This document shows positions 26,980 to 43,119 of a DNA stretch of 64,000 bases, one piece after another. Within the stretch, counting starts at the first letter, position 1, and every line of letters begins with the position of its first letter. A program made the translations under genes and the position numbers. The notes under the pieces were generated by a model that worked only from the letters and a program-made list of their open reading frames with translations, had not been told where the DNA came from and ran no database searches. This stretch comes from Bacteroidales bacterium (GTDB lineage Bacteria; Bacteroidota; Bacteroidia; Bacteroidales; G3-4614), in assembly GCA_017935575.1 (NCBI GenBank), contig JAGBHI010000003.1, positions 5,869 through 69,868 on the forward strand. Direction: 5' to 3'.

Positions 26980-29118
26980 GTGAAGAGAATAATATTTTTT
27001 ATTTCGGTTTTATTTGCTGTCTCATTTTTTGAAGTTTCTGCAAATCCTATTATTGGATTATTGGAAAGAATAGATAAGGGAACTTCAAATAAATTTGAGA
27101 TTGAAATAGATGATAGCGACAAAGATTTTTTTGAGTTAAGTTCAAGAAACCGTAAAATTGTTGTTAAAGGGAACAATTACCTCTCTGTTGCTACCGGAAT
27201 TAATTGGTATTTAAAGTATTATGCAGGGATCCACTTGTCGTGGAACAATATGAACAATACTCTACCCGACTCTCTTCCGATTATTGAAAAACCTATAAGA
27301 ATTGAGAGCAATGTAAAATATAGATACGACCTTAATTTTTGCACTTTTTCGTACTCAATGGCCTTTTGGGATTGGGAGCGCTGGGAACGTGAAATTGATT
27401 GGATGGCTCTACATGGCATAAACCTCTCTTTGGCAATAACAGGTAGTGAAAACGTTTGGGTTAATGTTCTTAAAAAACTTGGATATAGCGATAACGAAAT
27501 TAATGATTTTATTGCCGGTCCTGCATTCTCTGCTTGGTGGTTAATGAATAATCTTGAAGGTTGGGGAGGTAAAAATCACAAAAGATGGTATGAGAGACAA
27601 TCAGCTCTTCAACAACAGATAATCAAAAGAATGAAGGAGTTCGGCATTGAGCCTGTATTACCTGGATATTGCGGTATGATTCCGAGCAATGCTAAAGAGA
27701 AACTCAATATCAATGCTGTTAATACCGGTTTATGGTGCGGATATAAAAGACCTTTCTTTATTCTGCCTAATGATAGCAATTTTAATAAAATTGCAAAACT
27801 ATATTATCAAGAGCAAAGTAAACTTTACGGAGCTGCAAACTTCTATGCGATTGACCCCTTTCATGAGGGAGGAATGTGTGAAGGTATTGATATGAAACAA
27901 GCCGGCTTATCAATTATGAATGCAATGAAAAAAGCAAATAAGAATGCTATATGGGTGGCTCAAGGTTGGCAAGGCAATCCTAATAAAGAGATGATTGAGC
28001 CTTTAAAAAACGGCGATATGCTTATTTTGGATTTGCATAGCGAAAGTGCTCCTCAATGGCAACATTATGGCAAACATAATTGGGCATATTGCATGCTCCT
28101 TAATTTTGGTGCTAATGTTGGATTGCACGGTAAAATTGATGCTGTTATAAATGGTTTTTACGATATAAAAGATAACGCCAAAAGCAACTTGTTTCTAAAA
28201 GGTATTGGAATGACCCCGGAGGGGATTGAGAATAACCCTGTAATGTATGAGCTTATAACAGAACTTGCATGGAGAGAGAAGAGATTTAACAAGAACGAAT
28301 GGCTAACCAATTATGTAAAGGCAAGGTATGGAACATCTGACTCAACCTTAATTAAAGTGTGGCATATTTTAGGTAATAGTATCTATAATGCCCCTAAAGC
28401 AAATCGCCAACAAGGTTGCACTGAGTCAATATTTTGCGCAAGACCTGATTTAAATGCTAAAGATGTCTCAAAATGGGCAAATTCTGAAACATACTACAAT
28501 CAGTCTGATATTATTTATGCAGCTTCTCTCATGATTGATATTGCAGATAAATACATAGGAAACAATAATTTTGAATATGACCTTATTGATATTGCGAGAC
28601 AAGCTATTAGCGAAAAAGGTCGTATTGTTTTAAAAGAGATAAAGAGTGCATATGAGAACAACTCTTTTGATTTGTTTTCTCTTAAATGCGATACATTTCT
28701 AAACCTTATTTTAGCCCAAAATAGACTCTTGAGTTGTAGAAAAGAGTTTATGGTTGGAAATTGGATTAATTGTGCCAAGAAAATGGGAAAATCTCGCAAT
28801 GAGAAGACGCTGTACGAGTGGAATGCCAAAGTGCAAATTTCAACATGGGGCAACAGAACAGCCTCTGAAAATGGCGGATTAAGAGATTATGCCCATAAAG
28901 AATGGAATGGAATATTAAAAGATCTATATTACTACAGATGGAAAATCTATTTTGACGAGTTAAAGAGTGGTTTTAAGAATAAGGAATGTAAAACCTTTGA
29001 TTGGTATTCAATTGATGAAGAGTGGATAAATAAAAAAATGAGATATCCTGACAAACCCACTAACAATAGTTTAAAGATTATCAAAGATATCTCTCTATTA
29101 TTTTCTAATCTAAATTAG
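26980..29118 (+). CDS. Alpha-N-acetylglucosaminidase (NAGLU-like, GH89)
   Basis: 712 aa with a GTG start and a signal peptide. Typical NAGLU blocks are present (GINWYLKYY, YRYDLNFCTFSYSMAFWDWERWEREIDWMALHGINL, GPAFSAWWLMNNLEGWGG, DPFHEGG). Confidence 0.85.
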   Translation: MKRIIFFISVLFAVSFFEVSANPIIGLLERIDKGTSNKFEIEIDDSDKDFFELSSRNRKIVVKGNNYLSVATGINWYLKYYAGIHLSWNNMNNTLPDSLPIIEKPIRIESNVKYRYDLNFCTFSYSMAFWDWERWEREIDWMALHGINLSLAITGSENVWVNVLKKLGYSDNEINDFIAGPAFSAWWLMNNLEGWGGKNHKRWYERQSALQQQIIKRMKEFGIEPVLPGYCGMIPSNAKEKLNINAVNTGLWCGYKRPFFILPNDSNFNKIAKLYYQEQSKLYGAANFYAIDPFHEGGMCEGIDMKQAGLSIMNAMKKANKNAIWVAQGWQGNPNKEMIEPLKNGDMLILDLHSESAPQWQHYGKHNWAYCMLLNFGANVGLHGKIDAVINGFYDIKDNAKSNLFLKGIGMTPEGIENNPVMYELITELAWREKRFNKNEWLTNYVKARYGTSDSTLIKVWHILGNSIYNAPKANRQQGCTESIFCARPDLNAKDVSKWANSETYYNQSDIIYAASLMIDIADKYIGNNNFEYDLIDIARQAISEKGRIVLKEIKSAYENNSFDLFSLKCDTFLNLILAQNRLLSCRKEFMVGNWINCAKKMGKSRNEKTLYEWNAKVQISTWGNRTASENGGLRDYAHKEWNGILKDLYYYRWKIYFDELKSGFKNKECKTFDWYSIDEEWINKKMRYPDKPTNNSLKIIKDISLLFSNLN

Positions 29119-29124
29119 TAATTA

Positions 29125-29556
29125 TTATCTGCGAATATTTCTGTACTCCATAAATTTAGTATAACTACGAATGTAATCGTGTTCATCGTACGGCAATGAT
29201 GCCAATACAAGAGTTATAGCTCCTGATGAGAAGTTTTTTATCTCTCGCCAAATTCCAGGCTGAAGTAACAATCCATAATAGGGTCTGTTTAAAGTTATAG
29301 TTTTTCGCTCTTTACCATCATCAATAACCACATCAAAACTTCCACTGACCGCTACTAACATTTGTGCCAACTCTTTATGAGCATGACCTCCTCTATCAGT
29401 AGCTCCTGGAACGTCATAAATATAATATACCCTTTTTATTTCAAAACCCATATCCTTATTGCCTCCTTCAACTGCAGTAAGGTTTCCGTTTGGGCGATAA
29501 TGCTTTCCTAATTGAATTATCTTACAATCCGCAATACTATGTAGTTTCTTATTCAT
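29125..29556 (-). CDS. FdtA/QdtA-like dTDP-4-keto-6-deoxyhexose 3,4-ketoisomerase (WxcM-like cupin), copy with intact H-x-H
   Basis: 143 aa. RGGHAHKELAQMLVAVSGSF...LVLASLPYDEHDYIRSY aligns with the FdtA signature PRGFHAHKKLEQ...LASDYYDETDYIR. Confidence 0.8.
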   Translation of the reverse strand: MNKKLHSIADCKIIQLGKHYRPNGNLTAVEGGNKDMGFEIKRVYYIYDVPGATDRGGHAHKELAQMLVAVSGSFDVVIDDGKERKTITLNRPYYGLLLQPGIWREIKNFSSGAITLVLASLPYDEHDYIRSYTKFMEYRNIRR

Positions 29557-29962
29557 TACTATTTATATATTGTAGATATTCATTAAAATCTTCGATATAA
29601 TCTTCAGATGAGTAGTGTGTTGATGATAAAACCAACGCTACTGCATTTGTTGAGAAATTTTCTATCTTTCGCCATATTTTATTAGGAACATATACTCCTT
29701 GATATGAACGATTTAAAGAGAAAACCTTCTCTTCTTTACCATCATTAAGTATTATATCAAAACTACCTGATAATGCCACAATGAACTCATGCTGTTCTTT
29801 AAATGCATGCCCATAACGTTTCTCACCACCAGGTACGTCATATATCCAATATGCTCTTTCTATAGCAAATGGGATATGGGTAAACTCCTCTATAACTGAA
29901 AGATTACCTCTAAAATCTTCCTCTTTGGGAAGCATCACTATTTTTGCATCACTGAGAGCCAC
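29549..29962 (-). CDS. FdtA/WxcM-like cupin paralog with H-x-F in place of H-x-H
   Basis: 137 aa, roughly 40 percent identical by eye to the downstream copy. The catalytic-region motif reads RYGHAFKEQHE. Overlaps its paralog by 8 nt. Confidence 0.7.
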   Translation of the reverse strand: MALSDAKIVMLPKEEDFRGNLSVIEEFTHIPFAIERAYWIYDVPGGEKRYGHAFKEQHEFIVALSGSFDIILNDGKEEKVFSLNRSYQGVYVPNKIWRKIENFSTNAVALVLSSTHYSSEDYIEDFNEYLQYINSNE

Positions 29963-32086: not shown

Positions 32087-32120
32087 GTAATTATATTTTT
32101 TAATACAACAATAGATTTAC

Positions 32121-32152
32121 AAAAAAAGAGGATATGTTCAACATACCCTCTT
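32121..32152 (-). terminator. Intrinsic terminator ending the DUF3575 / poly-barrel operon
   Basis: The minus strand reads AGAGGGTATGTT-GAA-CATATCCTCT followed by T7. It lies 20 nt downstream of the stop at 32172. Confidence 0.75.
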
Positions 32153-32171
32153 ATCTTGCTATATAGTTTTA

Positions 32172-35069
32172 TTAAAATTTGAAGTCAAATCCTGCCAACA
32201 ACATGGCTGTTGCATCAAATCCTGCATTTGATTTATATCCGTCTATCTTATCGCCATAGAATACTCCGCGAGGCTCAACATAGAAGTTTACATGTTTGCT
32301 TAGCCTTACATTCGCTTTTAATCCAAATGCTGCTGTATATGTAGCTTTTGAGCCGATATTTGCTTCCTTGTCAATAGGTATTACAGCTCCTAAACCTGCA
32401 AAGAATAGTGCATCAAATATCTTATTAGGATTATAACCTGATGATAATGATGTTAAATTAAGCATATAATCAGCACGTGCCGATACTACTCCCATCGGTT
32501 CTCCTATATATTGATATGGTTTTCTTATATAGTTATATTCTCCATTTATTCTTAAACCATGTACAGAGTTAATCCAACGTCCGTATGCCAAACCTCCGGA
32601 ATAGGTCATCTTCTCTCCAAAACTTCCGCTTGTAAATTTAGACATCAATGTATTTCCGTATAATCCTAAACCTCCATACATTGATATAAAGTTTTTCTCT
32701 TCAATCTCAGTTGTTGCTCCTGATTTAATACGTTCAGACTGATTCATGGTATATGTCATACCTGCCAAAAGTGCAACATTTGTTTTCTGCTTGCTAACCC
32801 CATCAAATTTATTCAAATATACTGCAACTTGTGGCTCAATATACAAACCAACCTTGGGTGATATATTAAACATTCCTTGAAGACTTCCTTTTACTCCGGG
32901 AATAAATCTTCTATCGTGATTTACTATTGAAAATCCTGCATGGACTCCGGCATTGATATTTAAATCAAATAAACGATATGGCTTATAACCTAATGCAGCG
33001 TCCATAAAGCTGAACATTACATCAGCTTCTAATCCTCCATGTGTTATATCTTTTTCGTTTGTCGCGCCATTCAACTTTTCAGCCATTGCACTTACTCTCC
33101 AACCTAAGACAGGAGTTTCCCAACAACCAATTGACAAACGTCCTAATGGACCTACGCGGAATTTTGTATTATCCCACAATCTGTTATCAAGATTTCCTGA
33201 TGCTCCAAGTGCAAATGAGAAGAATAATCGTTTACCTTCGTCCCCTTTAAATATTTGATATGATGCTGCATCGTAACCTCTCATTTTATAGGTTGTTCCG
33301 ATGTTTGCTGTCATTAAGATTGTCTTACGTGTTATAATGGTATTTGTAAAGACACTACGAGAGGGTGACCATATTGCATGTGGCTCTACATATACACTCC
33401 AATTCTTTTGTAAATTGAAGTTCCCTTTGAAGAATGCTTGAAATGCAGGATAGAATGTTGAGTGATGATATATAGCAGATGCTCCTATACCTCCTATTAA
33501 TTCAAATAATCTGTCTTCGCGATATCCACATACGACATTAGTCATGTTTAGTAGATAATCAACACCAAATGTCAATGTTCTTGCACGATATGGCTCTTCC
33601 GATTCAAGTCTCGGATTTCTTGTTCCGTACAATAATGAACCTCCTGAGAATTGAATACCGGAATTTTTAGTAAACCATTTTCCAACACCTATATTAAAGC
33701 GATAAGCAAGTGCATCACCTCCTTTTAAACCTTGATCATAACGTTCAATTAATCCTCCCATACCTGCTGATGCAGATACAAACATGTGGTCAGCTCTTGA
33801 TTTCTGAATAAATTGGTCATTATCTTTTCGATACTCTTCATCGTTACTATGATAAGTTACACCAAATAATACTGAAGCAACTCCATCAAAACGATTCTCT
33901 TGTCCGTGAGTATATGTCTTATTATAGAATGATATTCGGGGCTCCATAAACATATCTATGGTTGGAGATACGCGGAATGCTCCTTGTAATCCTATACCCA
34001 AACCTCCTGCTGCCTTCCAAGATGTATCGTTATATTTTGTAGCAGCAAGTTCTAATCCGAATGTTCCTATAAATTTAAATATTCTCTTCTCATTATAGCC
34101 TCCAAAAAGATTACTATAATTTACCAAATAATCAATTCTACCGACGGTATTAATAAGTTTTGTTGCTTCTGAAACTCCATCTTCAGAATAGTAAGGAGAA
34201 AATCCTGCTAAGGCAGAAAATCTTACACCTTGTATAGGCGTAAACCAACCTCCAAAACCTAACATTCCTTCAAAACCGGCATAATTTCGGTCTTTAATAT
34301 CAAACAAACGAGAAGTTATGCGTTGCAGACCAAATGCTCCTGTAAAGAATACATTATCTTTAAAAGAAGAACTTCCATAATCTGTTGTACGACGTTTTGA
34401 CTCAGGAACCATCTTATAGGTCATACCCACAGTCACCTCAGGCAATAAGTCAAATTTGCGCTCTTGCCATTTTTCACCCTCATTATAACCATCATTTGCC
34501 AATGTTACTTTTGGCTCTATATATACTGCCATAAGAGGTGATACATTGAAACTTCCTTGAAAACCTAAAGCACCTCCTATTAGATTTGTGCCAAAGCCAT
34601 AACGATATGAACGTTTGTATGTTAATCCTGCAATACCATAAAATTCAAATAATCTGTCCGGATTATATCCTCTGGCAAACGCACTTAAATTAGCCATATA
34701 ATCAAGGTTAAAGCCAAAAAGAGCATGAGTTTTGGTTCCTCTATCATAAAGATATGACATATCTATACCAAACCTGGCTCCGATAACCGGTGTAAACCAT
34801 TTTCCGAATGAATATCTTATAACAGGACCTCTTTCTGTTCCGGGTTGATTATTCAAAAAGTTAAATTGTGCTCCGGCACCCAAACTCACAAATGTATGAT
34901 CCATAAACTTTGGATTATCAAACTTCTCAAGGGGTGGACGCTTTTGTAAGCGATAATCTAAAGCATTAAATTGTGCATATGCTTCTGAGATTGCGATAGA
35001 GAATATCACAATCATCACACATATAAAACGCACACTTGTTATTTTAATATTTGTATATATCTTTTCCAT
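32172..35069 (-). CDS. Outer-membrane protein made of five tandem OmpA-N-like beta-barrel modules
   Basis: 965 aa with a signal peptide (…IAISEAYA/Q). Five ~165-175-aa modules share the same ordered landmarks (see finding). The C-terminus ends FDFKF, an aromatic-terminal OMP signature. Confidence 0.7.
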   Translation of the reverse strand: MEKIYTNIKITSVRFICVMIVIFSIAISEAYAQFNALDYRLQKRPPLEKFDNPKFMDHTFVSLGAGAQFNFLNNQPGTERGPVIRYSFGKWFTPVIGARFGIDMSYLYDRGTKTHALFGFNLDYMANLSAFARGYNPDRLFEFYGIAGLTYKRSYRYGFGTNLIGGALGFQGSFNVSPLMAVYIEPKVTLANDGYNEGEKWQERKFDLLPEVTVGMTYKMVPESKRRTTDYGSSSFKDNVFFTGAFGLQRITSRLFDIKDRNYAGFEGMLGFGGWFTPIQGVRFSALAGFSPYYSEDGVSEATKLINTVGRIDYLVNYSNLFGGYNEKRIFKFIGTFGLELAATKYNDTSWKAAGGLGIGLQGAFRVSPTIDMFMEPRISFYNKTYTHGQENRFDGVASVLFGVTYHSNDEEYRKDNDQFIQKSRADHMFVSASAGMGGLIERYDQGLKGGDALAYRFNIGVGKWFTKNSGIQFSGGSLLYGTRNPRLESEEPYRARTLTFGVDYLLNMTNVVCGYREDRLFELIGGIGASAIYHHSTFYPAFQAFFKGNFNLQKNWSVYVEPHAIWSPSRSVFTNTIITRKTILMTANIGTTYKMRGYDAASYQIFKGDEGKRLFFSFALGASGNLDNRLWDNTKFRVGPLGRLSIGCWETPVLGWRVSAMAEKLNGATNEKDITHGGLEADVMFSFMDAALGYKPYRLFDLNINAGVHAGFSIVNHDRRFIPGVKGSLQGMFNISPKVGLYIEPQVAVYLNKFDGVSKQKTNVALLAGMTYTMNQSERIKSGATTEIEEKNFISMYGGLGLYGNTLMSKFTSGSFGEKMTYSGGLAYGRWINSVHGLRINGEYNYIRKPYQYIGEPMGVVSARADYMLNLTSLSSGYNPNKIFDALFFAGLGAVIPIDKEANIGSKATYTAAFGLKANVRLSKHVNFYVEPRGVFYGDKIDGYKSNAGFDATAMLLAGFDFKF

Positions 35070-35071
35070 CG

Positions 35072-37075
35072 TTACAACAAGTCTTTAACATCGGCATCAA
35101 TCTCCGCAATTTCTCTTAATGAAGGATCCATCTCTAATGCAGTTTCTATATAATTAATAGCTTCAACCACCATATCAAGACGGTTTGTTATTATTGCTTT
35201 TACATATAGTGTACGAGCTGAATCGTCTGGTAATTCTTGCGCTTTCTCCCAAGCCTCTTCGTTTCGCTTCATTGCCAAAAGGATTAGAACCTCATTTATT
35301 CCTCCCTCATCTGCAAATTGCTCCAATGCTTTTTTATAATCTCCATTTAATACGCGAGTCACAGATTTTATATAATCTGTTGTCTCAGAATCAGGCATTA
35401 AAGCTGCAACTGAATCGGCACTTTCATATCTCCAATCATCTAAATATGCAACGATCTGATTTGATAAGACCTCAACAGGAGCACCCTCTTTTATAAAAGG
35501 TTTCAATAATTCTGCATCTGAACGTCCTTGACGTATATACATTGCTGCAAGATTATTTGCAGCTAACATAAATTTGGGATATACTGATAATGCTTGAGTA
35601 TATAGAGTTTCTCGTTCAACATCATCTTTTGCCTGCAAGAACATTCTATAAAAGTCGTAACGAGAAAGTTGTGTGTAATTTTGCTCATACATCTCTCGTA
35701 TCTCCTCATCTTTTAGTACTCGATAAAGAGAGTATCCAAAGTTATATTCTACCCTTCTTAATTCTGGGAGATATTTGGGTACTATCAATGAACGATAGTA
35801 TGATAATTTACGTATTTTGTCAAATTGAGCATTTAATTTACCTGGATACTTATCAATTATTGCTTGCAACTCACTTGCTTTGTCTTCTAAAGAGTCACGT
35901 TTCATCATTGCCACTACAGGTAACCAGTCTTCAACTTTTGATGATGATTCTACTTTTAAGAACTCGCGTGTTACAGGGCTTATATATGATAATATTCTAT
36001 CACGTGCTACCTTCATACGTTCGTCTGCCAAAACAACATTTTTGCTGTAATTTCCATCTGGCGAAGATATACCATTGATTGACATTGACTCTAATCGTGC
36101 ATCTGGGTCGTTTTCAAGAAATGCTATTCTATCTTGTAACTTTTTAAGTTCCGACGCATTATGAGGATCGCTTTCGTCAATTTTTGCTTTACCTGGCAGA
36201 TATGTCAAATGTACCTCTCCCTTGTCGTTACGTAATGCTAACTCAGGTTTTGGTATATATATTGAATCGGTCAAATCTTGTGCTCCTAATTGATAATCAA
36301 AGAAACGCAATGGATTTACTGTACCTTTTGCAATAGTCATTGTATCAATTCTGATAATTTTCTTGTAATCTTCAACTGACAAGAATACATCTGAGCGATA
36401 ATCATCTCGGTTATTCTCAATATAGACAGAATCGTGGTATGCGATAATCTCTCCTTGACGAGACATCTGACTCTCTTGAATATATGGAGACAAAGTGTCT
36501 CGCTTAATATCAAACGAATACATTCGCTCTTGTGTCAAAAGATATTCTCTTCCGTCTGACACAACCGGACGCAAATAGATGATTTTACGACGTGTTACAT
36601 TATATATTGTAGGTTGTACTACCAAACGGTGGTCTAATGCCATTACCTCCTTTGGCACTTTAAATCTTGTGCGCAAATGGAAATAGTTTCCTATAACCTC
36701 TATCTCTGATGGTTCAAATACCACATTACCCAAAAGGCTCGCTGTTACTGTAATCTCCTCTATCTCACGAGCTGTAGATTTCATCTCTACATCAATGGTC
36801 AATCGGCCTTTTACTTTTACCTTCTCTTCAGAATATCCCATACAAGTAAAAGATAGTGTTGCATTTGGAGCTAACACAACCGAATATTTTCCATCTTCAT
36901 CGGTTATACCCAATACTCTCTGACGACCTAAATCCGTGATTGACACACCACCTATTCTCTCTCCATTATTTCCTCTAACCACACCGGTAAGACGAATATT
37001 TTGAGCGCAAATTTCAAATGGCAAAGCCAATATAAGCGTTGCTATCAACAATAATATTTTAGATATTCTTTTCAT
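35072..37075 (-). CDS. CarboxypepD_reg-like / DUF3868-like / TPR-like envelope protein
   Basis: 667 aa with a signal peptide. N-terminal carboxypeptidase-regulatory-like beta-sandwich (IRLTGVVRGNNGERIGGVSITD...DGKYSV). The central segment resembles DUF3868 (FHLRTRFKVP...RLVVQPTIYN...LRPVVSDGREY). There is an OmpA_C-like remnant (INGISSPDGNYSKNVVLADERMKVARDRI). The C-terminal ~200 aa is helical and TPR-like. Confidence 0.55.
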   Translation of the reverse strand: MKRISKILLLIATLILALPFEICAQNIRLTGVVRGNNGERIGGVSITDLGRQRVLGITDEDGKYSVVLAPNATLSFTCMGYSEEKVKVKGRLTIDVEMKSTAREIEEITVTASLLGNVVFEPSEIEVIGNYFHLRTRFKVPKEVMALDHRLVVQPTIYNVTRRKIIYLRPVVSDGREYLLTQERMYSFDIKRDTLSPYIQESQMSRQGEIIAYHDSVYIENNRDDYRSDVFLSVEDYKKIIRIDTMTIAKGTVNPLRFFDYQLGAQDLTDSIYIPKPELALRNDKGEVHLTYLPGKAKIDESDPHNASELKKLQDRIAFLENDPDARLESMSINGISSPDGNYSKNVVLADERMKVARDRILSYISPVTREFLKVESSSKVEDWLPVVAMMKRDSLEDKASELQAIIDKYPGKLNAQFDKIRKLSYYRSLIVPKYLPELRRVEYNFGYSLYRVLKDEEIREMYEQNYTQLSRYDFYRMFLQAKDDVERETLYTQALSVYPKFMLAANNLAAMYIRQGRSDAELLKPFIKEGAPVEVLSNQIVAYLDDWRYESADSVAALMPDSETTDYIKSVTRVLNGDYKKALEQFADEGGINEVLILLAMKRNEEAWEKAQELPDDSARTLYVKAIITNRLDMVVEAINYIETALEMDPSLREIAEIDADVKDLL

Positions 37076-37091
37076 CTCTGATTACTCCTTT

Positions 37092-37679
37092 TTAGAAAAT
37101 AACGTAAGAAACTGTTACTCCTAACTTAATAGGCACCAAACACCATCTGTTTGCATTATTTGTTGCAGGGAGAGGCTCTCCTTCAAGATATTTCTTTTCC
37201 CAACGATGCATTACTCCTACTCCTGCTGTCAGTTCCAAATTCCACCTTTTAGTCAAAACAAAATTATAACCATAAGTAAAACCTCCACCCAATGCTTGTC
37301 CATCATGATACTCCTTTTTACGCATTAAGTCATAATCAAGGTATAACAATGTAAATCCTAAAAAGTGTTGCGCCATAGGGCGTTGAAACCAATAACGCAA
37401 TTCAGGTTGAAGACTCAAATGGTTAAATTTTGAATCAGCATATGGAGTCCAAACATTAAATGACGCTGACAAATCAAGCGACATATAAGGATTCACTACA
37501 AACTCTGCAGATACATTTGGAGAGATCGTCGCCCAATCCAAAACGTTAGTTTTTACAGCTATTTTTTGAGACAGACCTGATAAAGGCACCAACATAAATA
37601 GTATAAATAACACTATTTTTGCCTTTCTTTTTAAAAGAGAATTTGAGGCATTTACGTTATTTATTGAATGTATTTTCAT
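37092..37679 (-). CDS. DUF3575 domain outer-membrane beta-barrel protein
   Basis: 195 aa with a signal peptide. KTNVLDWATISPNVSAEF...LSLQPELRYWFQRPMAQHFLGF... matches the DUF3575 pattern (KTNLLYDA...QPE.RYWF). Confidence 0.75.
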   Translation of the reverse strand: MKIHSINNVNASNSLLKRKAKIVLFILFMLVPLSGLSQKIAVKTNVLDWATISPNVSAEFVVNPYMSLDLSASFNVWTPYADSKFNHLSLQPELRYWFQRPMAQHFLGFTLLYLDYDLMRKKEYHDGQALGGGFTYGYNFVLTKRWNLELTAGVGVMHRWEKKYLEGEPLPATNNANRWCLVPIKLGVTVSYVIF

Positions 37680-37757
37680 ATCTTTAATTAATCTTTTTAT
37701 TATTTTCTCTGATACTCAGCAGAAAACAAGCATTCTGCAGATCACAAAATACGGGCG

Positions 37758-37765
37758 CAAAGTTA
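37758..37765 (-). promoter_or_regulatory. Putative -7 promoter box (TAACTTTG on minus strand) for the DUF3575 operon
   Basis: The plus strand reads CAAAGTTA, 79 nt upstream of ATG 37679. Confidence 0.3.
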
Positions 37766-38016: not shown

Positions 38017-39237
38017 ATGATTAACAACCCTGAGATAAACAGCATAAAGCAACGATTTAATATTATAGGAACCACCCCCTCATTATTAAGAGCAATAAGC
38101 CGAGCTATTCAAGTTGCGAGGTTTGACATATCGGTTCTTATAACTGGAGAGAGCGGAACGGGTAAGGAGTTTTTTCCTAAAATAATACATGAAAACAGCG
38201 AAAGAAAACACAAAAAATATATAGCCGTAAACTGCGGAGCAATACCTGAAGGGACTATTGATTCAGAGCTATTTGGGCATGAAAAAGGAGCCTTTACGGG
38301 TGCTTTGGCCGACAGAAAAGGGTACTTTGAAGAAGGCAACGGAGGAACAATATTTTTAGACGAAGTTGGTGAACTACCATTAACGACACAAGCTCGCCTT
38401 TTAAGAGTTTTGGAAAATGGAGAATTTTTAAAGGTAGGTTCTTCAAAAGTTCAAAAAACAGATGTACGAATTGTGGCTGCTACCAATATGAATATGACAA
38501 AAGCCATTCAGGAAGGCAAATTCAGGGAGGATCTTTTTTACCGATTAAACACGGTGCATATTGAGCTTCCCCCTCTTCGTAATAGAATGGACGACATTCT
38601 TCTGCTATTCAGAAAATTCACATCTGATTTTGCCGAAAAATACAAAATGCCGGCAATTCGTTTAACCGAAGACGCAAAAGAGCTTTTGCTTTCATATCGT
38701 TGGCCCGGAAATATCAGGCAACTACGAAATATTACTGAACAGATTTCAATATTAGAGACTTCAAGAGAGGTTAATGCTGATGTTCTTCGTTCATATCTTC
38801 CTGTTTATGATGGACCTAATTTACCTGCCATAAACAAGAGGGAGAGCAATGCCTTTATAGATGGCGAACGAGAAATGCTCTATAAAATAATATTGGAAAT
38901 GCGTAAAGAGTTGAATGAGATTAAAGAAAAAATTGAATCGACTGATATAACCGATATAAATATTCCTCATAAACTTCACTCCTCAAATTATGGAGAAGAG
39001 ATACATCATGAGGTTATACCATCTGTAATTGAACGCAAAACGCAAATTTTTGATAATATTGAAACTGTACATGCTGAAAGTGTTGAAGACAATACCCTTT
39101 CGCTTGAAGATGCGGAAAAAGAGATGATAAAAAAAGCTCTTGAAAGAAATAATGGCAAACGCAAGAAATGCGCTGAGGAGTTAAAAATTTCAGAAAGGAC
39201 ACTATATCGCAAAATAAAAGAATACAATTTAGACTAA
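38017..39237 (+). CDS. Sigma-54-dependent Fis-family transcriptional activator lacking an N-terminal sensory/receiver domain
   Basis: The AAA+ domain begins ~15 aa from the N-terminus (Walker A GESGTGKE, GAFTGA loop in HEKGAFTGA, Walker B TIFLDEVGE, RWPGNIRQL). C-terminal Fis-type HTH (AEELKISERTLYRKIKEY). Confidence 0.88.
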   Translation: MINNPEINSIKQRFNIIGTTPSLLRAISRAIQVARFDISVLITGESGTGKEFFPKIIHENSERKHKKYIAVNCGAIPEGTIDSELFGHEKGAFTGALADRKGYFEEGNGGTIFLDEVGELPLTTQARLLRVLENGEFLKVGSSKVQKTDVRIVAATNMNMTKAIQEGKFREDLFYRLNTVHIELPPLRNRMDDILLLFRKFTSDFAEKYKMPAIRLTEDAKELLLSYRWPGNIRQLRNITEQISILETSREVNADVLRSYLPVYDGPNLPAINKRESNAFIDGEREMLYKIILEMRKELNEIKEKIESTDITDINIPHKLHSSNYGEEIHHEVIPSVIERKTQIFDNIETVHAESVEDNTLSLEDAEKEMIKKALERNNGKRKKCAEELKISERTLYRKIKEYNLD

Positions 39238-39752
39238 TGAAACGTATATACAAAAAAATAGTTTTATCATTTGTCATAGTTACAATAATGGCAGGCTGTA
39301 CCATATCATACAAATTTAATGGTGCTTCAATTGACTATAATACAACAAAAACTATATCGATTGCAGATTTTCCCATTAGAGCCTCATTGGTATATCCTCC
39401 TCTTGCTCAAGCATTCAATCTTGCATTGGAAGATATATATGTAAGACAAACACGTTTGAACGTTGTAAGAAACAACGGAGACCTACAAGTTGAAGGTGAG
39501 ATTACAGGATACGACCTTACTCCTCAAGCCGTAAAAAGTGATGCTTATGCATCACAAACAAGACTAACAGTAAGAGTAAGAGTAAAATATACTGACACTA
39601 AAAATCCTCAATTTAGTATTGACGAAACATTCAGCGCTTATCGCGATTTTGACAGTTCAAGACTATTGACTGAGGTTCAAGATGAACTCATTGGCGAAAT
39701 AACAAAAGAGTTGGCAGAACTCATTTTTAATGCAACTGTAGCAAACTGGTAA
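39237..39752 (+). CDS. lptE: LptE-like LPS-assembly lipoprotein
   Basis: 171 aa with lipobox MAGC. Its start overlaps the EBP stop (TAATG). It holds the EBP - lptE - x - secG position conserved in Bacteroidota. The assignment rests mainly on context. Confidence 0.55.
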   Translation: MKRIYKKIVLSFVIVTIMAGCTISYKFNGASIDYNTTKTISIADFPIRASLVYPPLAQAFNLALEDIYVRQTRLNVVRNNGDLQVEGEITGYDLTPQAVKSDAYASQTRLTVRVRVKYTDTKNPQFSIDETFSAYRDFDSSRLLTEVQDELIGEITKELAELIFNATVANW

Positions 39753-39755
39753 TCT

Positions 39756-40412
39756 ATGGCTCGCAATAATAAAACAAAAAACAGAGTCTCAGACGGATAC
39801 AAACGCAACAATCTGCTCTCGGCAATGAATAAGCCGGGAGACAACCTTGCAACCCTCTCTAAAGAGTTGAAAAAGTTAGCAGCATTTATGCACAACTCAA
39901 AAAATAACGAAACAGACAACTACGAGCCTAAAGATATTATTGAAAAATCTGAGAACAATTCAGAAGATAATTTCTCATCAATAAATTCATTCTTAGAGAG
40001 TAATGGCGTTAAGGAAACATCTCTTGACGATATTCTTATAAGCGAGGGTTATAGTAACGATTACTTTGCTATGAACGAGGAGACAACCACTCCCCTGCAT
40101 AATGATAAACAGATAAATTCAATTGACTCTTTTATTGAAGCAGTTGAAAATGGAGAGTTTAGTAAATCCATTGAAGATGATAGTGAAGAAGAGATTGATG
40201 AGGACCTGCTTGAAGAAGAGGAGTATAACCAACCTATTGATGAGAGTTTTTACACAGAAAGTTTGGCAAGTATTTATATAAAACAACGTAAATATGCACG
40301 AGCTTTGGAAATTATTAAGAGCATAAGTTTGAAAAATCCAGAAAAAAATATTTACTTTGCAGACCAAATTAGGTTTTTGGAAAAATTGATTATTAATGTA
40401 AAATCTGAATAA
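39756..40412 (+). CDS. Acidic hypothetical protein with C-terminal TPR-like helix pair
   Basis: 218 aa with a Glu/Asp/Asn-rich centre. The C-terminus reads YTESLASIYIKQRKYARALEIIKSISLKNPEKNIYFADQIRFLEKL. Confidence 0.5.
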   Translation: MARNNKTKNRVSDGYKRNNLLSAMNKPGDNLATLSKELKKLAAFMHNSKNNETDNYEPKDIIEKSENNSEDNFSSINSFLESNGVKETSLDDILISEGYSNDYFAMNEETTTPLHNDKQINSIDSFIEAVENGEFSKSIEDDSEEEIDEDLLEEEEYNQPIDESFYTESLASIYIKQRKYARALEIIKSISLKNPEKNIYFADQIRFLEKLIINVKSE

Positions 40413-40414
40413 AC

Positions 40415-40762
40415 ATGGCAACATTTATTACCATTCTTATTGTACTTGCAGCTATATTGATGATTCTCATCGTGTTAGTACAAAATTCTAAAGGTGGAGG
40501 TTTGGCTTCAGGCTTTGCTTCATCAAACCAAATTATGGGTGTTAGAAAAACTACTGACTTCCTTGAGAAAACAACTTGGACATTGGCTGCAACTATTGTT
40601 GTCCTAAGTATTCTTTCTGCTGCGTTTATCTCTCGCACAGGAGTTGAGACTTCTGAAATTCAGAACTCAATTCAACAAGAGGCTCCCGTTGCAATGCCCG
40701 ACATTCAACAAGAGACAGCTCCTGCAGAGGTTCCCGCTCTACCAGAGAATGCTCAAAACTAA
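40415..40762 (+). CDS. secG: Preprotein translocase subunit SecG
   Basis: 115 aa. Two TM helices around the conserved LVQNSKGGGLASGFAS loop. Confidence 0.85.
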   Translation: MATFITILIVLAAILMILIVLVQNSKGGGLASGFASSNQIMGVRKTTDFLEKTTWTLAATIVVLSILSAAFISRTGVETSEIQNSIQQEAPVAMPDIQQETAPAEVPALPENAQN

Positions 40763-41066: not shown

Positions 41067-43119
41067 CTATTTAACTACCACCTTATATACTTTTGATGCA
41101 ACTTTTACAATATATATACCGGAAGTTTTCACTATTTGCGCTTGTCCATCAACAAATTGTCTATTTTCAACTATTCCCGACATATTATATATATGTACTT
41201 CTTCGTTTTTTGAAGTAACTATATTTATTGCTCCTGCCGATGCATATACTACCGCTTCAACCGCATTTACATCTTCTATACCGCTAAAATTGGTATATTG
41301 AACATTTATCTCGGTATCGGAAGTTACTTTTATTGAATGCTTTCCGTTAATCAATTCTGACGATTTATCTTCTCCGTTTACGGTATATGCAATAAGTGAC
41401 TCTCCTTCAACAGGAGTAAGAGCTACTGCAACTTCTGTTCCATAATTAACCATTGAACCACTTTGTAGTTCATTTTGCTCTGCGTCTTTAAGGATAAAAT
41501 CAACTCCTCCTTCAATGGTATAGTTTATAGTATGTTGTTTTATTTTATAGGTTGCAGATATTTATTTGTGTATCCGACTCAGGTAGATATGCATAAGAGC
41601 CTGACGAATTGTGTTGTGCCGTTACATCTTCTTCATTTATTAACAACTGTTCCAACTCATATCCCTCTACAGGGGTTGCAGTTATTAATAATACTGTATT
41701 TTCAGGGACAGTAGTTCCTGATGCCACAATAGAGTTGTTTTCCAATGTTTTAACCATGAGTTTACCTCCTTGCTCATAATTTTTATAAAATTTTACCCAA
41801 TCAAGATACATCTCAACCGGCAGATCTGCACCTGTTACACTTCCTACCCATGAACCTCCTAATTGCATATCAAGAATAAGGTAAAACTCTTTTCCGTACG
41901 GATATTGATCGGTTGCCCCTGTATTGGGATATGCCATTGTTACATTGCCGTTTACCATCAACTTGGTTGTATCCGGAGAAAGCACTACTCCATAAGTGTT
42001 ATAATTTGCAACATTTACAGATTCTGTTATATGAGACAAAGGACTCTCCTTGCTTACATTATATGTATAATTGCTATGTAGTGTTTGATATACAAAGCCA
42101 TCGTAATTGAGATGCTCAAAGATATCTATCTCGCCACAACCGGGCCAACCTGCCGATTGGTCTTCAGGCATCATCCATAACGCTGGCCATGCGCCTTGAG
42201 CTGATGAGGTCTTTGCTCTTATCTCAATACGTCCGTTTGAGAAACTTTTTTTACCTAACGACTCTATTCCTCCACATAAATATGAACGGGTATCGCCTGT
42301 TATTGCTTGTCCCGGATTAGCTATTCCTCTGAGAACTATATTTCCGTCTATAAAATCAAAGCAACCATCGTATGTTGATATGTTTTTTCGCCAATCGGGA
42401 TTTCCGCTCTCATATGGTTCAATCTTTGTCCAGATGGTTTCATCAAGAGTGCCTTTGTCAAATTGCTCCTCCCACTCCAATTTATACTCCGATGTATATT
42501 GGTTATTTATGGTTATCTCGTAGTTACGAACCAAACCTGATAGCCTGAGAGTCAAATCTACTATTGCCCCTCCATTCTGCTCCATTGAATTACCTGTTGC
42601 AGTTGTACGTCCGCATGGGTCAGGAGAATCCCAATCAACTTTAATTCTCATACGGTAATCTCCCGATGGGATATCTTCGGGTATAATAAACGAGGGAGTT
42701 GACGATGGTGGACATACACCTCCATCAGCAAGTTGTTCTCCTTTACTGTTACGCCATACACCATTCTGCATATAGCCACTATGTGCCACAAGCTCATTAT
42801 TGGTGTTAAATTCTCCATCGTTATCATAATCAATATATACATATCCCTGCATCCAAACTCCTTCATATACAATTTGAGGTGTTATTGTTGCCCCGGCTTG
42901 TGCATAAAAAACTTTTGATGTTTTGTTATAATATATGGGAGAGTATCCGCTTGATGCTATAGTGAGAGGTGAAAATTCATAGGTTCCCCCTGTGAATGCT
43001 ACACTACTAAGATAGCGCGACGAGTTTGAAGATGTTGTTCGCGTACAATAATCAGCCTTAACATTCATAGATGTTAATACTGAAAACATCATCAGCAATA
43101 AAAAGTAGCTTTTTCTCAT
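41067..43119 (-). pseudogene. GH16 glycoside hydrolase with N-terminal GEVED-like module and T9SS CTD, split by a frameshift
   Basis: The upstream ORF (41545..43119) has a signal peptide, a GEVED-like module (aa 23-193) and a GH16 domain with catalytic GEIDIFE (nt 42115-42135). It stops at TAA 41545-41547. The other frame is open from 41561 and reads ISATYKIKQHTINYTIEGG...MVNYGTEV... through to a Por_Secre_tail-like end (HIYNMSGIVENRQ...GIYIVKVASKVYKVVVK). Confidence 0.65.

Follow-up and report, generated by a model that had tools for sequence, protein, structure and literature searches.

A conserved gene trio of Bacteroidales encoding a DUF3575 protein, an OmpA-like protein with a putative TonB box and a chain of predicted eight-stranded barrels

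A 64,000-nucleotide stretch of DNA from a Bacteroidales bacterium (GenBank assembly GCA_017935575.1, contig JAGBHI010000003.1, positions 5,869 to 69,868 of the forward strand; the whole stretch is referred to as the window) contains three co-directional open reading frames (ORFs) on the minus strand, here called genes 1, 2 and 3, which encode proteins of 195, 667 and 965 amino acids. The intergenic gaps of 16 and 2 nt given in a preliminary description of the sequence agree with the ORF coordinates. The three genes are a real conserved unit, found in the same order in all 80 species-level loci that were compared. The first gene encodes a DUF3575 protein, the second combines the N-terminus of a SusC-type transporter with a DUF3868-like centre, and the third is a chain of five predicted eight-stranded barrels. 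The trio may be an envelope operon whose products form a complex that spans outer membrane and periplasm and tethers the outer membrane to the cell wall, a proposal for which we see the chances as evenly balanced.

Conservation of the gene trio

Genes of the trio were called with local hidden Markov models in the 80 best-scoring loci from 186 relatives, using one genome per species. All 80 loci showed the same gene order and orientation between unrelated flanks, and the absence of gene 1 from two of them is explained by the start of the contig; a gene 1 ortholog lies directly upstream of gene 2 in every locus that is not truncated by a contig end. Thus, the co-occurrence of the trio across the Bacteroidales, on which the preliminary description depended, could be established by gene neighbourhood analysis. 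Median gaps across the trio loci were 26 and 8 nt. The trio was identified in Bacteroides (Bacteroides xylanisolvens, Bacteroides acidifaciens and a bin labelled Bacteroides thetaiotaomicron), Prevotella, Alloprevotella, Barnesiella and Coprobacter, and further in Duncaniella and other Muribaculaceae and in one Marinifilaceae bin. Five contexts that were fetched via homologs of gene 3 or gene 2 all contained a DUF3575 gene, a gene 2-like gene and a poly-barrel gene in this order, with different neighbours.

The detectable homologs of gene 3 were few and formed 32 clusters in all, and 378 homologs of gene 2 were retrieved in a word-indexed search. With the central region of gene 2 alone, 1,130 representatives were found at E ≤ 1e-3, mostly of 670-830 amino acids and with the same layout. 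Gene 2 of the window is 98% identical to its counterpart in a Candidatus Caccoplasma metagenome bin (L010).

Domains of the three proteins

All three proteins carry a signal peptide with Gln at position +1. A C-terminal Phe, which is typical of barrel proteins, is found on the products of genes 1 and 3 and is absent from that of gene 2. Gene 1 matched Pfam DUF3575 (PF12099) over model positions 3-177 of 177 with an E-value of 6e-52 and 175.9 bits (cut-off 21.1), so that its earlier assignment to this family is borne out. Its product is presumed to be a small outer-membrane beta-barrel. One protein (P0416, L095:3829-5190) was considered as a fusion of DUF3575 and OmpA that could serve as Rosetta-stone evidence, and was dropped. 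It matches OmpA at residues 69-145 and the first third of DUF3575 at residues 277-322, and the remainder of DUF3575 is found in the next ORF of 110 amino acids. It comes from a metagenome bin and is probably an OmpA-like protein that runs into a DUF3575 gene by a frameshift in the assembly or by read-through, and because the split DUF3575 points to such an event, it was not used as evidence. In this locus the OmpA-like gene stands before the DUF3575 gene, the reverse of the usual order.

The signal peptide of gene 2 ends in ICA, followed by QN, and has no lipobox. The beta-sandwich of CarboxypepD_reg type that had been described at the N-terminus of this protein was recovered, as residues 30-110 matched Pfam CarbopepD_reg_2 (E 2e-8). 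More exactly, this region is a SusC-type N-terminal extension (NTE) that is followed by a candidate TonB box, which had been overlooked. The gene 2 family profile aligned with SusC homologs in the PDB with an E-value of 4.5e-19 over the region of signal peptide, NTE and TonB box, and these alignments continue into the DEVVV(T/V)G segment of the TonB-box region. When compared by Foldseek with the crystal structure of the BT3090 NTE (9hfj), the gene 2 NTE gave a template modelling (TM) score of 0.88 and a root-mean-square deviation (rmsd) of 1.2 Å. The NTE of SusC lies ahead of the TonB box and is thought to influence the pairing with TonB (bioRxiv 10.64898/2026.09.16.752182).

Directly behind the gene 2 NTE, the motif IEEITVTA occupies a position with the consensus L-[DE]-E-V-[VT]-V-[TV]-[AG] across 216 family members, whereas the flanking positions vary. 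This consensus corresponds to that of a TonB box. In the AlphaFold2 model the motif sits in a segment with a low predicted local distance difference test (pLDDT) score, and this segment is probably flexible. Signal peptide, NTE and TonB box of SusC/RagA transporters align with gene 2 residue by residue. Unlike these transporters, gene 2 has neither a plug domain nor a 22-strand barrel, since the transporter model TIGR04056 was matched only at positions 2-85 of 981 with 54.3 bits, compared to a cut-off of 368.

For the centre of gene 2, the preliminary description had proposed a DUF3868-like region. In hmmscan, no match to Pfam DUF3868 (PF12984) was obtained at E ≤ 1, and this model matched only one of 52 gene 2 relatives (E 0.0057). 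Among the four families expected from hmmscan of the three products, DUF3575 and CarbopepD_reg_2 were therefore recovered, DUF3868 was not and TPR stayed below threshold. The similarity to DUF3868 could be seen only in profile-profile comparison. A 380-amino acid protein encoded beside a second DUF3575 gene in locus L044 showed weak matches to DUF3868 and OmpA, and was aligned by BLASTP with gene 2 residues 330-448 (E 7e-7). A DUF3868-family profile was built by a search with this protein, and its members are named 'DUF3868 domain-containing protein' in their sources. The gene 2 family matched this profile in hhalign with a probability of 99.4% and an E-value of 3.3e-21 over 313 columns, pairing gene 2 residues 120-448 with target residues 33-374. 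For the DUF3868 N-domain region alone, an E-value of 2.2e-5 and a probability of 76% were obtained with a profile of 216 sequences, and a probability of 11% with 12 sequences. These whole-length and N-part profile comparisons indicate homology between the central part of gene 2 and whole DUF3868-type proteins, firmly for the OmpA-like half and with moderate confidence for the DUF3868 domain proper. Neither an NTE nor a TonB box was found in the DUF3868-family proteins examined, and some of these proteins (P0404, P0410) have a TPR tail.

The OmpA_C-like remnant noted earlier, with the motif SPDG-x4-N-x2-LA-x2-R, is indeed present in gene 2, and S338, P339, G341, N346, L349 and R353 are invariant or nearly so. 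Residues 280-450 were modelled confidently (pLDDT 77-96) and in Foldseek resembled the C-terminal domains of OmpA/RmpM (4rha, 1r1m, 5nhx) with TM scores of ∼0.6. Pfam OmpA matched 15 of 52 diverse gene 2 relatives, with gene 2 itself below detection. In PorE, the peptidoglycan-binding triad consists of D576, N584 and R591 (PMC7192894), and the invariant N346 and R353 of gene 2 are spaced as N584 and R591 of PorE. The sequence SSP[DE]G (residues 337-341 in the window protein) is invariant in the gene 2 family and in the pilus-linked DUF3868 proteins described below, where it replaces the canonical (H/Y)TD..G of OmpA domains, which argues that the whole superfamily shares a modified ligand pocket.

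In the C-terminal tail of gene 2, the TPR matches remained sub-threshold at E-values of 5e-4 to 5e-3 (TPR_17 20.4 bits, cut-off 24.4; TPR_1 19.5 bits, cut-off 27.8). NCBIfam TPR_END_plus was matched with an E-value of 3.9e-5, and gene 2 relatives gave TPR matches of 2.3e-4 to 2.9e-4. In the AlphaFold2 model, the tail is all-helical with moderate to low confidence.

Gene 3 consists of five modules of ∼177 amino acids, which are 24-34% identical to each other in pairwise blastp (E 1e-7 to 3e-20). No Pfam match was found for the whole protein, and Pfam scans of the five separate modules and 18 gene 3 relatives gave essentially nothing, with one relative matching OMP_b-brl (4e-8). In NCBIfam, a weak match to PorT/SprT was obtained (E 2e-4). 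The AlphaFold2 model, built with 18 homologs (pLDDT 75), contains 40 strands arranged as five times eight, and every module has short helices in an equivalent position. A Foldseek search of the PDB with the complete five-barrel model retrieved only generic large barrels with rmsd values of 18-44 Å and was uninformative. Closure of the barrels was tested by direct-coupling analysis on 450 unique modules (effective number of sequences 283). All seven ladders between neighbouring strands were seen. In addition, a closure ladder between strands 1 and 8 was observed as four pairs on one anti-diagonal (ranks 155-466 of 14,365), together with cross-barrel couplings, among them an Arg-Glu pair linking strands 3 and 7 at rank six. 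Such a closure ladder and cross-barrel couplings would be expected if each module closes as a small barrel, but not if all of them formed a single giant one. The five-module barrel protein of the preliminary description is thus borne out by blastp, model and couplings, and the poly-barrel class to which its fold assigns it, overlooked in that description, has already been described computationally (PMC8346858).

When the usual barrel topology is assumed, the outside loops of gene 3 are 2-16 residues long and poorly conserved. On the periplasmic side, the turn T2 between strands 4 and 5 always has 13 residues, with a short helix and the motif GY(N/K)PxR(L/I)F(E/D), and a conserved LDYRLQKRP peptide is found at the mature N-terminus. 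The number of barrels per gene 3 was two in 7 loci, three in 1, four in 35, five in 23 and six in 8. Some long gene 3 homologs, P0016 (1312 amino acids), P0024 (1428) and P0022/P0023 (1131-1148), may hold seven or eight barrels or extra domains.

Possible function and relation to known systems

From the signal peptides of all three proteins, the barrel-type C-termini, the conservation facing the periplasm, the domains of gene 2 and the strict co-inheritance, we infer an outer-membrane/periplasm complex, and the localization, complex formation, peptidoglycan binding, engagement of TonB and tethering role proposed below are all meant in this sense. Genes 1 and 3 would supply the outer-membrane anchors, as a DUF3575 barrel and a chain of five eight-stranded barrels without pores. 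Gene 2 would be a soluble periplasmic adaptor with a module of the peptidoglycan-binding DUF3868/OmpA_C-like type that keeps Asn and Arg of the triad, and the barrels would probably dock on its TPR-like tail and beta-domain. At its N-terminus, gene 2 appears to copy the start of a SusC-type transporter, NTE and TonB box, with no plug or transporter barrel behind it. The barrels would anchor the adaptor, which would associate with the cell wall and, as the most probable mechanism, form a non-covalent tether or scaffold, in effect an OmpA with barrel and wall-binding parts as separate proteins. Via the TonB box, TonB-ExbBD may engage or remodel this tether using the proton-motive force.

Several points weigh against this model. 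Bacteroidales already have conventional OmpA and Pal-like tethers, and the need for another one is therefore unexplained. The physical interactions among the three proteins are themselves inferred, and no profile similarity of DUF3575 to the modules of gene 3 could be detected (hhalign probability 6.5%), so that a homology of the two kinds of barrel, which had been considered, is unsupported. The motif behind the NTE is a putative TonB box by its sequence and position alone, and no TonB or ExbBD gene is linked to the operon. The AlphaFold2 model of gene 2 is poor for residues 102-279 and 590-667. Finally, the Asp position of the triad is taken by the invariant Ser338, and binding of gene 2 to the wall may therefore be altered or lost.

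In a variant that we regard as tentative and clearly less probable than a tether, the trio would be a TonB-coupled envelope machine that is not a transporter, in which the adaptor takes up force from TonB-ExbBD via its NTE and TonB box and passes it to, or is released from, the pore-less barrels. Tol-Pal has an OmpA-like wall binder at the outer membrane and a TonB/TolA-type protein that is driven by the proton-motive force and engages it via a short N-terminal box. It resembles the proposed logic of the trio in concept. No homology to TolB, TolA or the lipoprotein Pal was detected in the trio, and the parts are arranged differently.

E. coli-type OmpA tethers share with the trio an eight-stranded membrane barrel and a periplasmic OmpA_C-like domain. 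In the trio, however, barrel and wall-binding part are on separate chains, the barrels are multiplied, the triad Asp is replaced by Ser, and gene 2 adds NTE, TonB box and TPR tail. A periplasmic protein with related domains is PorE (PG1058) of the Porphyromonas gingivalis type IX secretion system, which contains TPR together with a carboxypeptidase-regulatory-like and an OmpA_C-like peptidoglycan-binding domain (PMC12773672, PMC7192894). Gene 2 has counterparts of the latter two, with an OmpA_C-like fold, and a TPR-like tail. Unlike gene 2, PorE is a lipoprotein and contains a WD40 propeller; its domains are ordered differently, and no TonB box has been reported in it. Gene 2 has no lipobox, gave no WD40 match in hmmscan and was not retrieved as a PorE homolog, which argues against a PorE-like anchor.

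Type V pilus loci also share gene content with the trio. DUF3868 proteins were found in operons in which an integrase is followed by DUF3575-DUF3868-Peptidase_C11-DUF5029-Mfa2-P_gingi_FimA-x-Mfa_like_1, and another OmpA-like/DUF3575 pair heads an Mfa_like_1 cluster. Three independent contexts confirm the earlier statement on DUF3575-DUF3868 pairs at the head of type V pilus clusters. Like the trio, the pilus-linked pair has DUF3575 followed directly by a protein with a DUF3868-type beta-domain, an OmpA_C-like domain with SSPEG...N...R and a helical extension with YLPxLR. Unlike the trio, it lacks NTE, TonB box and usually the TPR tail, and is followed by Peptidase_C11, DUF5029, Mfa2 and FimA/Mfa-like pilins, whereas the third gene of the trio is the poly-barrel, with no pilins behind it. 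In the window, neither pilin (FimA/Mfa1-like) nor anchor (FimB/Mfa2) genes were found beside the trio and the terminator closes the operon, in agreement with the earlier view that the pilus structural genes are absent and the poly-barrel stands in their place. It is concluded that the trio is a paralogous arrangement distinct from the pilus-leading pair.

Because such paralogous pairs are the first genes of pilus operons, the trio could also support type V pili whose genes lie elsewhere in the genome, as an accessory or as an anchoring platform with the poly-barrel as membrane base. Homologs of pilus operon genes were searched with 14 query proteins, at limited sensitivity, and found within 10 kb of the trio in 4 of the 80 loci (L043, L044, L050, L051) and in none of the other 76, nor in the window. 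In the four loci, a two-barrel trio stands back-to-back with a complete, separately oriented pilus operon, across an integrase. These operons have their own DUF3575-DUF3868 pair, without NTE, TonB box and poly-barrel, and the gene 1 orthologs of the trio resemble each other (beyond the clade of the window, E 1e-30 to 1e-49) clearly more than they resemble pilus-linked DUF3575 (E 1e-19 to 1e-21). A role as pilus accessory is therefore considered unlikely. The back-to-back arrangement with a tyrosine integrase in between was seen in a Bacteroides hominis/faecalis/nordii-type lineage (L043, L044, L050, L051, L090-L092), in which the gene 2 of the two-barrel trio is longer (∼837 amino acids in L090). 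Type V pilus operons of Bacteroides also contain a clostripain-family Peptidase_C11 (L044:2396-5317 minus; L090:7229-17143; L093:7313-17113), which by analogy is a plausible pilin-maturation enzyme in the role of the Porphyromonas gingipain.

Two further explanations are less probable still, and to a similar degree. Solan et al. (2021; PMC8346858) described computationally a superfamily of poly-8 proteins in Bacteroidetes with 2-11 barrels, mainly in Bacteroides and Prevotella, and suggested avidity for repeated epitopes; partners or a tested function were not given, and no follow-up study on these proteins was found in the literature. Like gene 3, these proteins have tandem eight-stranded barrels in one chain, in variable number. 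That study treats the proteins only, without operon context, and gene 3, which is likened to them by its fold, differs in its strict linkage to DUF3575 and the TonB-box adaptor and in its conservation on the periplasmic side. Gene 3 might accordingly be a multivalent surface adhesin of gut Bacteroides and Prevotella, as proposed in that study, with genes 1 and 2 as assembly helpers, and the variable number of modules could tune its valency. The loop analysis disfavours this, as the predicted extracellular loops are short and the least conserved parts while the conserved features face the periplasm; moreover, the strict linkage to a periplasmic OmpA-like/TPR protein would be left unexplained. 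Alternatively, gene 2 could be a regulator or decoy that engages TonB, or belong to an export or uptake device that is powered by TonB and uses the barrels as conduit, since a conserved NTE and TonB box are otherwise typical of SusC-like transporters. Transport is disfavoured because the eight-stranded barrels have no channel, and there is no plug or 22-strand barrel (54 bits against 368 for TIGR04056). In addition, no substrate-related genes are linked and the flanks differ in every lineage. That three functionally unrelated genes are neighbours by chance can be dismissed, because all 80 loci, from several families and with unrelated flanks, keep the trio together, the three genes abut or overlap, and they share one promoter motif and one terminator.

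Operon boundaries, neighbouring genes and significance

The features of the trio are listed in Table 1. The -7-box candidate and the strong terminator that had been described as bounding the trio were both found. TAnnTTTG is the -7 element of Bacteroides promoters. This octamer is common by itself, and the two strands of the window together contain 116 copies. In the 260 nt preceding gene 1 orthologs, however, it was present in 54 of 73 loci, compared to 12 of 73 on the opposite strand.

Table 1. Coordinates of the trio and its features in the window
Feature	Position	Strand	Description
Candidate Bacteroides-type -7 element	37758..37765	-	TAACTTTG; exact TAnnTTTG match, 78 nt upstream of gene 1 ATG
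Gene 1	37092..37679	-	195-aa DUF3575 protein; signal peptide, C-terminal Phe; presumed small outer-membrane beta-barrel
Gene 2	35072..37075	-	667 aa; signal peptide, NTE, putative TonB box, DUF3868-like module with OmpA_C-like domain, helical/TPR-like tail
SusC-type NTE (CarbopepD_reg_2)	36776..36997	-	Gene 2 residues 27-100
TonB-box-like motif IEEITVTA	36740..36763	-	Gene 2 residues 105-112, directly after NTE
Beta-rich domain equivalent to DUF3868 N-domain	36236..36718	-	Gene 2 residues 120-280
OmpA_C-like domain and helical extension	35726..36235	-	Gene 2 residues 281-450; SSPDG...N346...R353, YLPELR
All-helical TPR-like tail	35075..35710	-	Gene 2 residues 456-667
Gene 3	32172..35069	-	965 aa; signal peptide, N-terminal LDYRLQKRP peptide, five tandem predicted 8-stranded barrel modules, final Phe
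Gene 3 module 1	34392..34922	-	Residues 50-226; pairwise blastp, 8 strands in AlphaFold2 model
Gene 3 module 2	33834..34376	-	Residues 232-412; pairwise blastp, AlphaFold2 model
Gene 3 module 3	33270..33800	-	Residues 424-600; pairwise blastp, AlphaFold2 model
Gene 3 module 4	32724..33248	-	Residues 608-782; pairwise blastp, AlphaFold2 model
Gene 3 module 5	32175..32708	-	Residues 788-965; pairwise blastp, AlphaFold2 model
Intrinsic-terminator-like hairpin and T-run	32116..32152	-	AAGAGGGTATGTTGAACATATCCTCTT and T-run at 32152-32126; 12-bp stem, 3-nt loop, ∼20 nt past gene 3 stop

Upstream of the trio and divergent to it lies a cluster of a sigma-54 activator, LptE, a gene of no recognised family (218-253 amino acids) and SecG (window 38017-40762, plus strand), which was also found beside the trio in a related metagenome contig (L003:2038-4810). 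No sigma-54 promoter was evident by eye in the 337-nt region that the trio shares with the divergent activator gene. The same cluster adjoins the trio in Coprobacter fastidiosus (L001:1-2685), with trehalose genes inserted, and the trio loci of Bacteroides and Prevotella have other neighbours. Beyond the terminator, the window contains rfbB-like and rfbA-like genes and, after these, two tandem FdtA/WxcM-like cupin genes (29125-29962, minus strand; 143 and 137 amino acids) that overlap by 8 nt; the same set of rfbB, rfbA and two FdtA genes is found in L003, 5 kb farther from the trio. Convergent to the dTDP-sugar genes is a full-length NAGLU-type alpha-N-acetylglucosaminidase with all three Pfam domains (26980-29118, plus strand). 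In a 524-amino acid protein elsewhere in the window (41545-43119, minus strand), a GEVED domain is joined to a glycoside hydrolase domain of family GH16.

In the open-access literature, no account was found of the trio operon or of a DUF3868/OmpA-like protein with a TonB box, and an existing description is possible. The searchable literature hardly mentions DUF3575 and DUF3868, which occur only as gene-list entries in four and two papers, respectively. The trio would combine known kinds of part, an OmpA-type tether or PorE-type anchor and poly-8 barrels; its one new feature is the NTE and putative TonB box on a protein without a transporter barrel.

A single syntenic trio is thus present in the main gut genera of the Bacteroidales, including the experimentally tractable Bacteroides, and it places the poly-barrel outer-membrane proteins in a concrete setting of genes and partner proteins. 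The occurrence of an NTE and a candidate TonB box without a transporter barrel makes the role of the NTE and the breadth of TonB clients in Bacteroides testable. If the TonB-coupled variant is true, the trio would provide an energy-dependent adjustment of the attachment between outer membrane and wall, for instance when cells divide, form vesicles or are under envelope stress. Should the tether model hold, it would be relevant to how stable the outer membrane of dominant gut symbionts is and how they produce vesicles, and to the role of the related gene pair that heads type V pilus operons.

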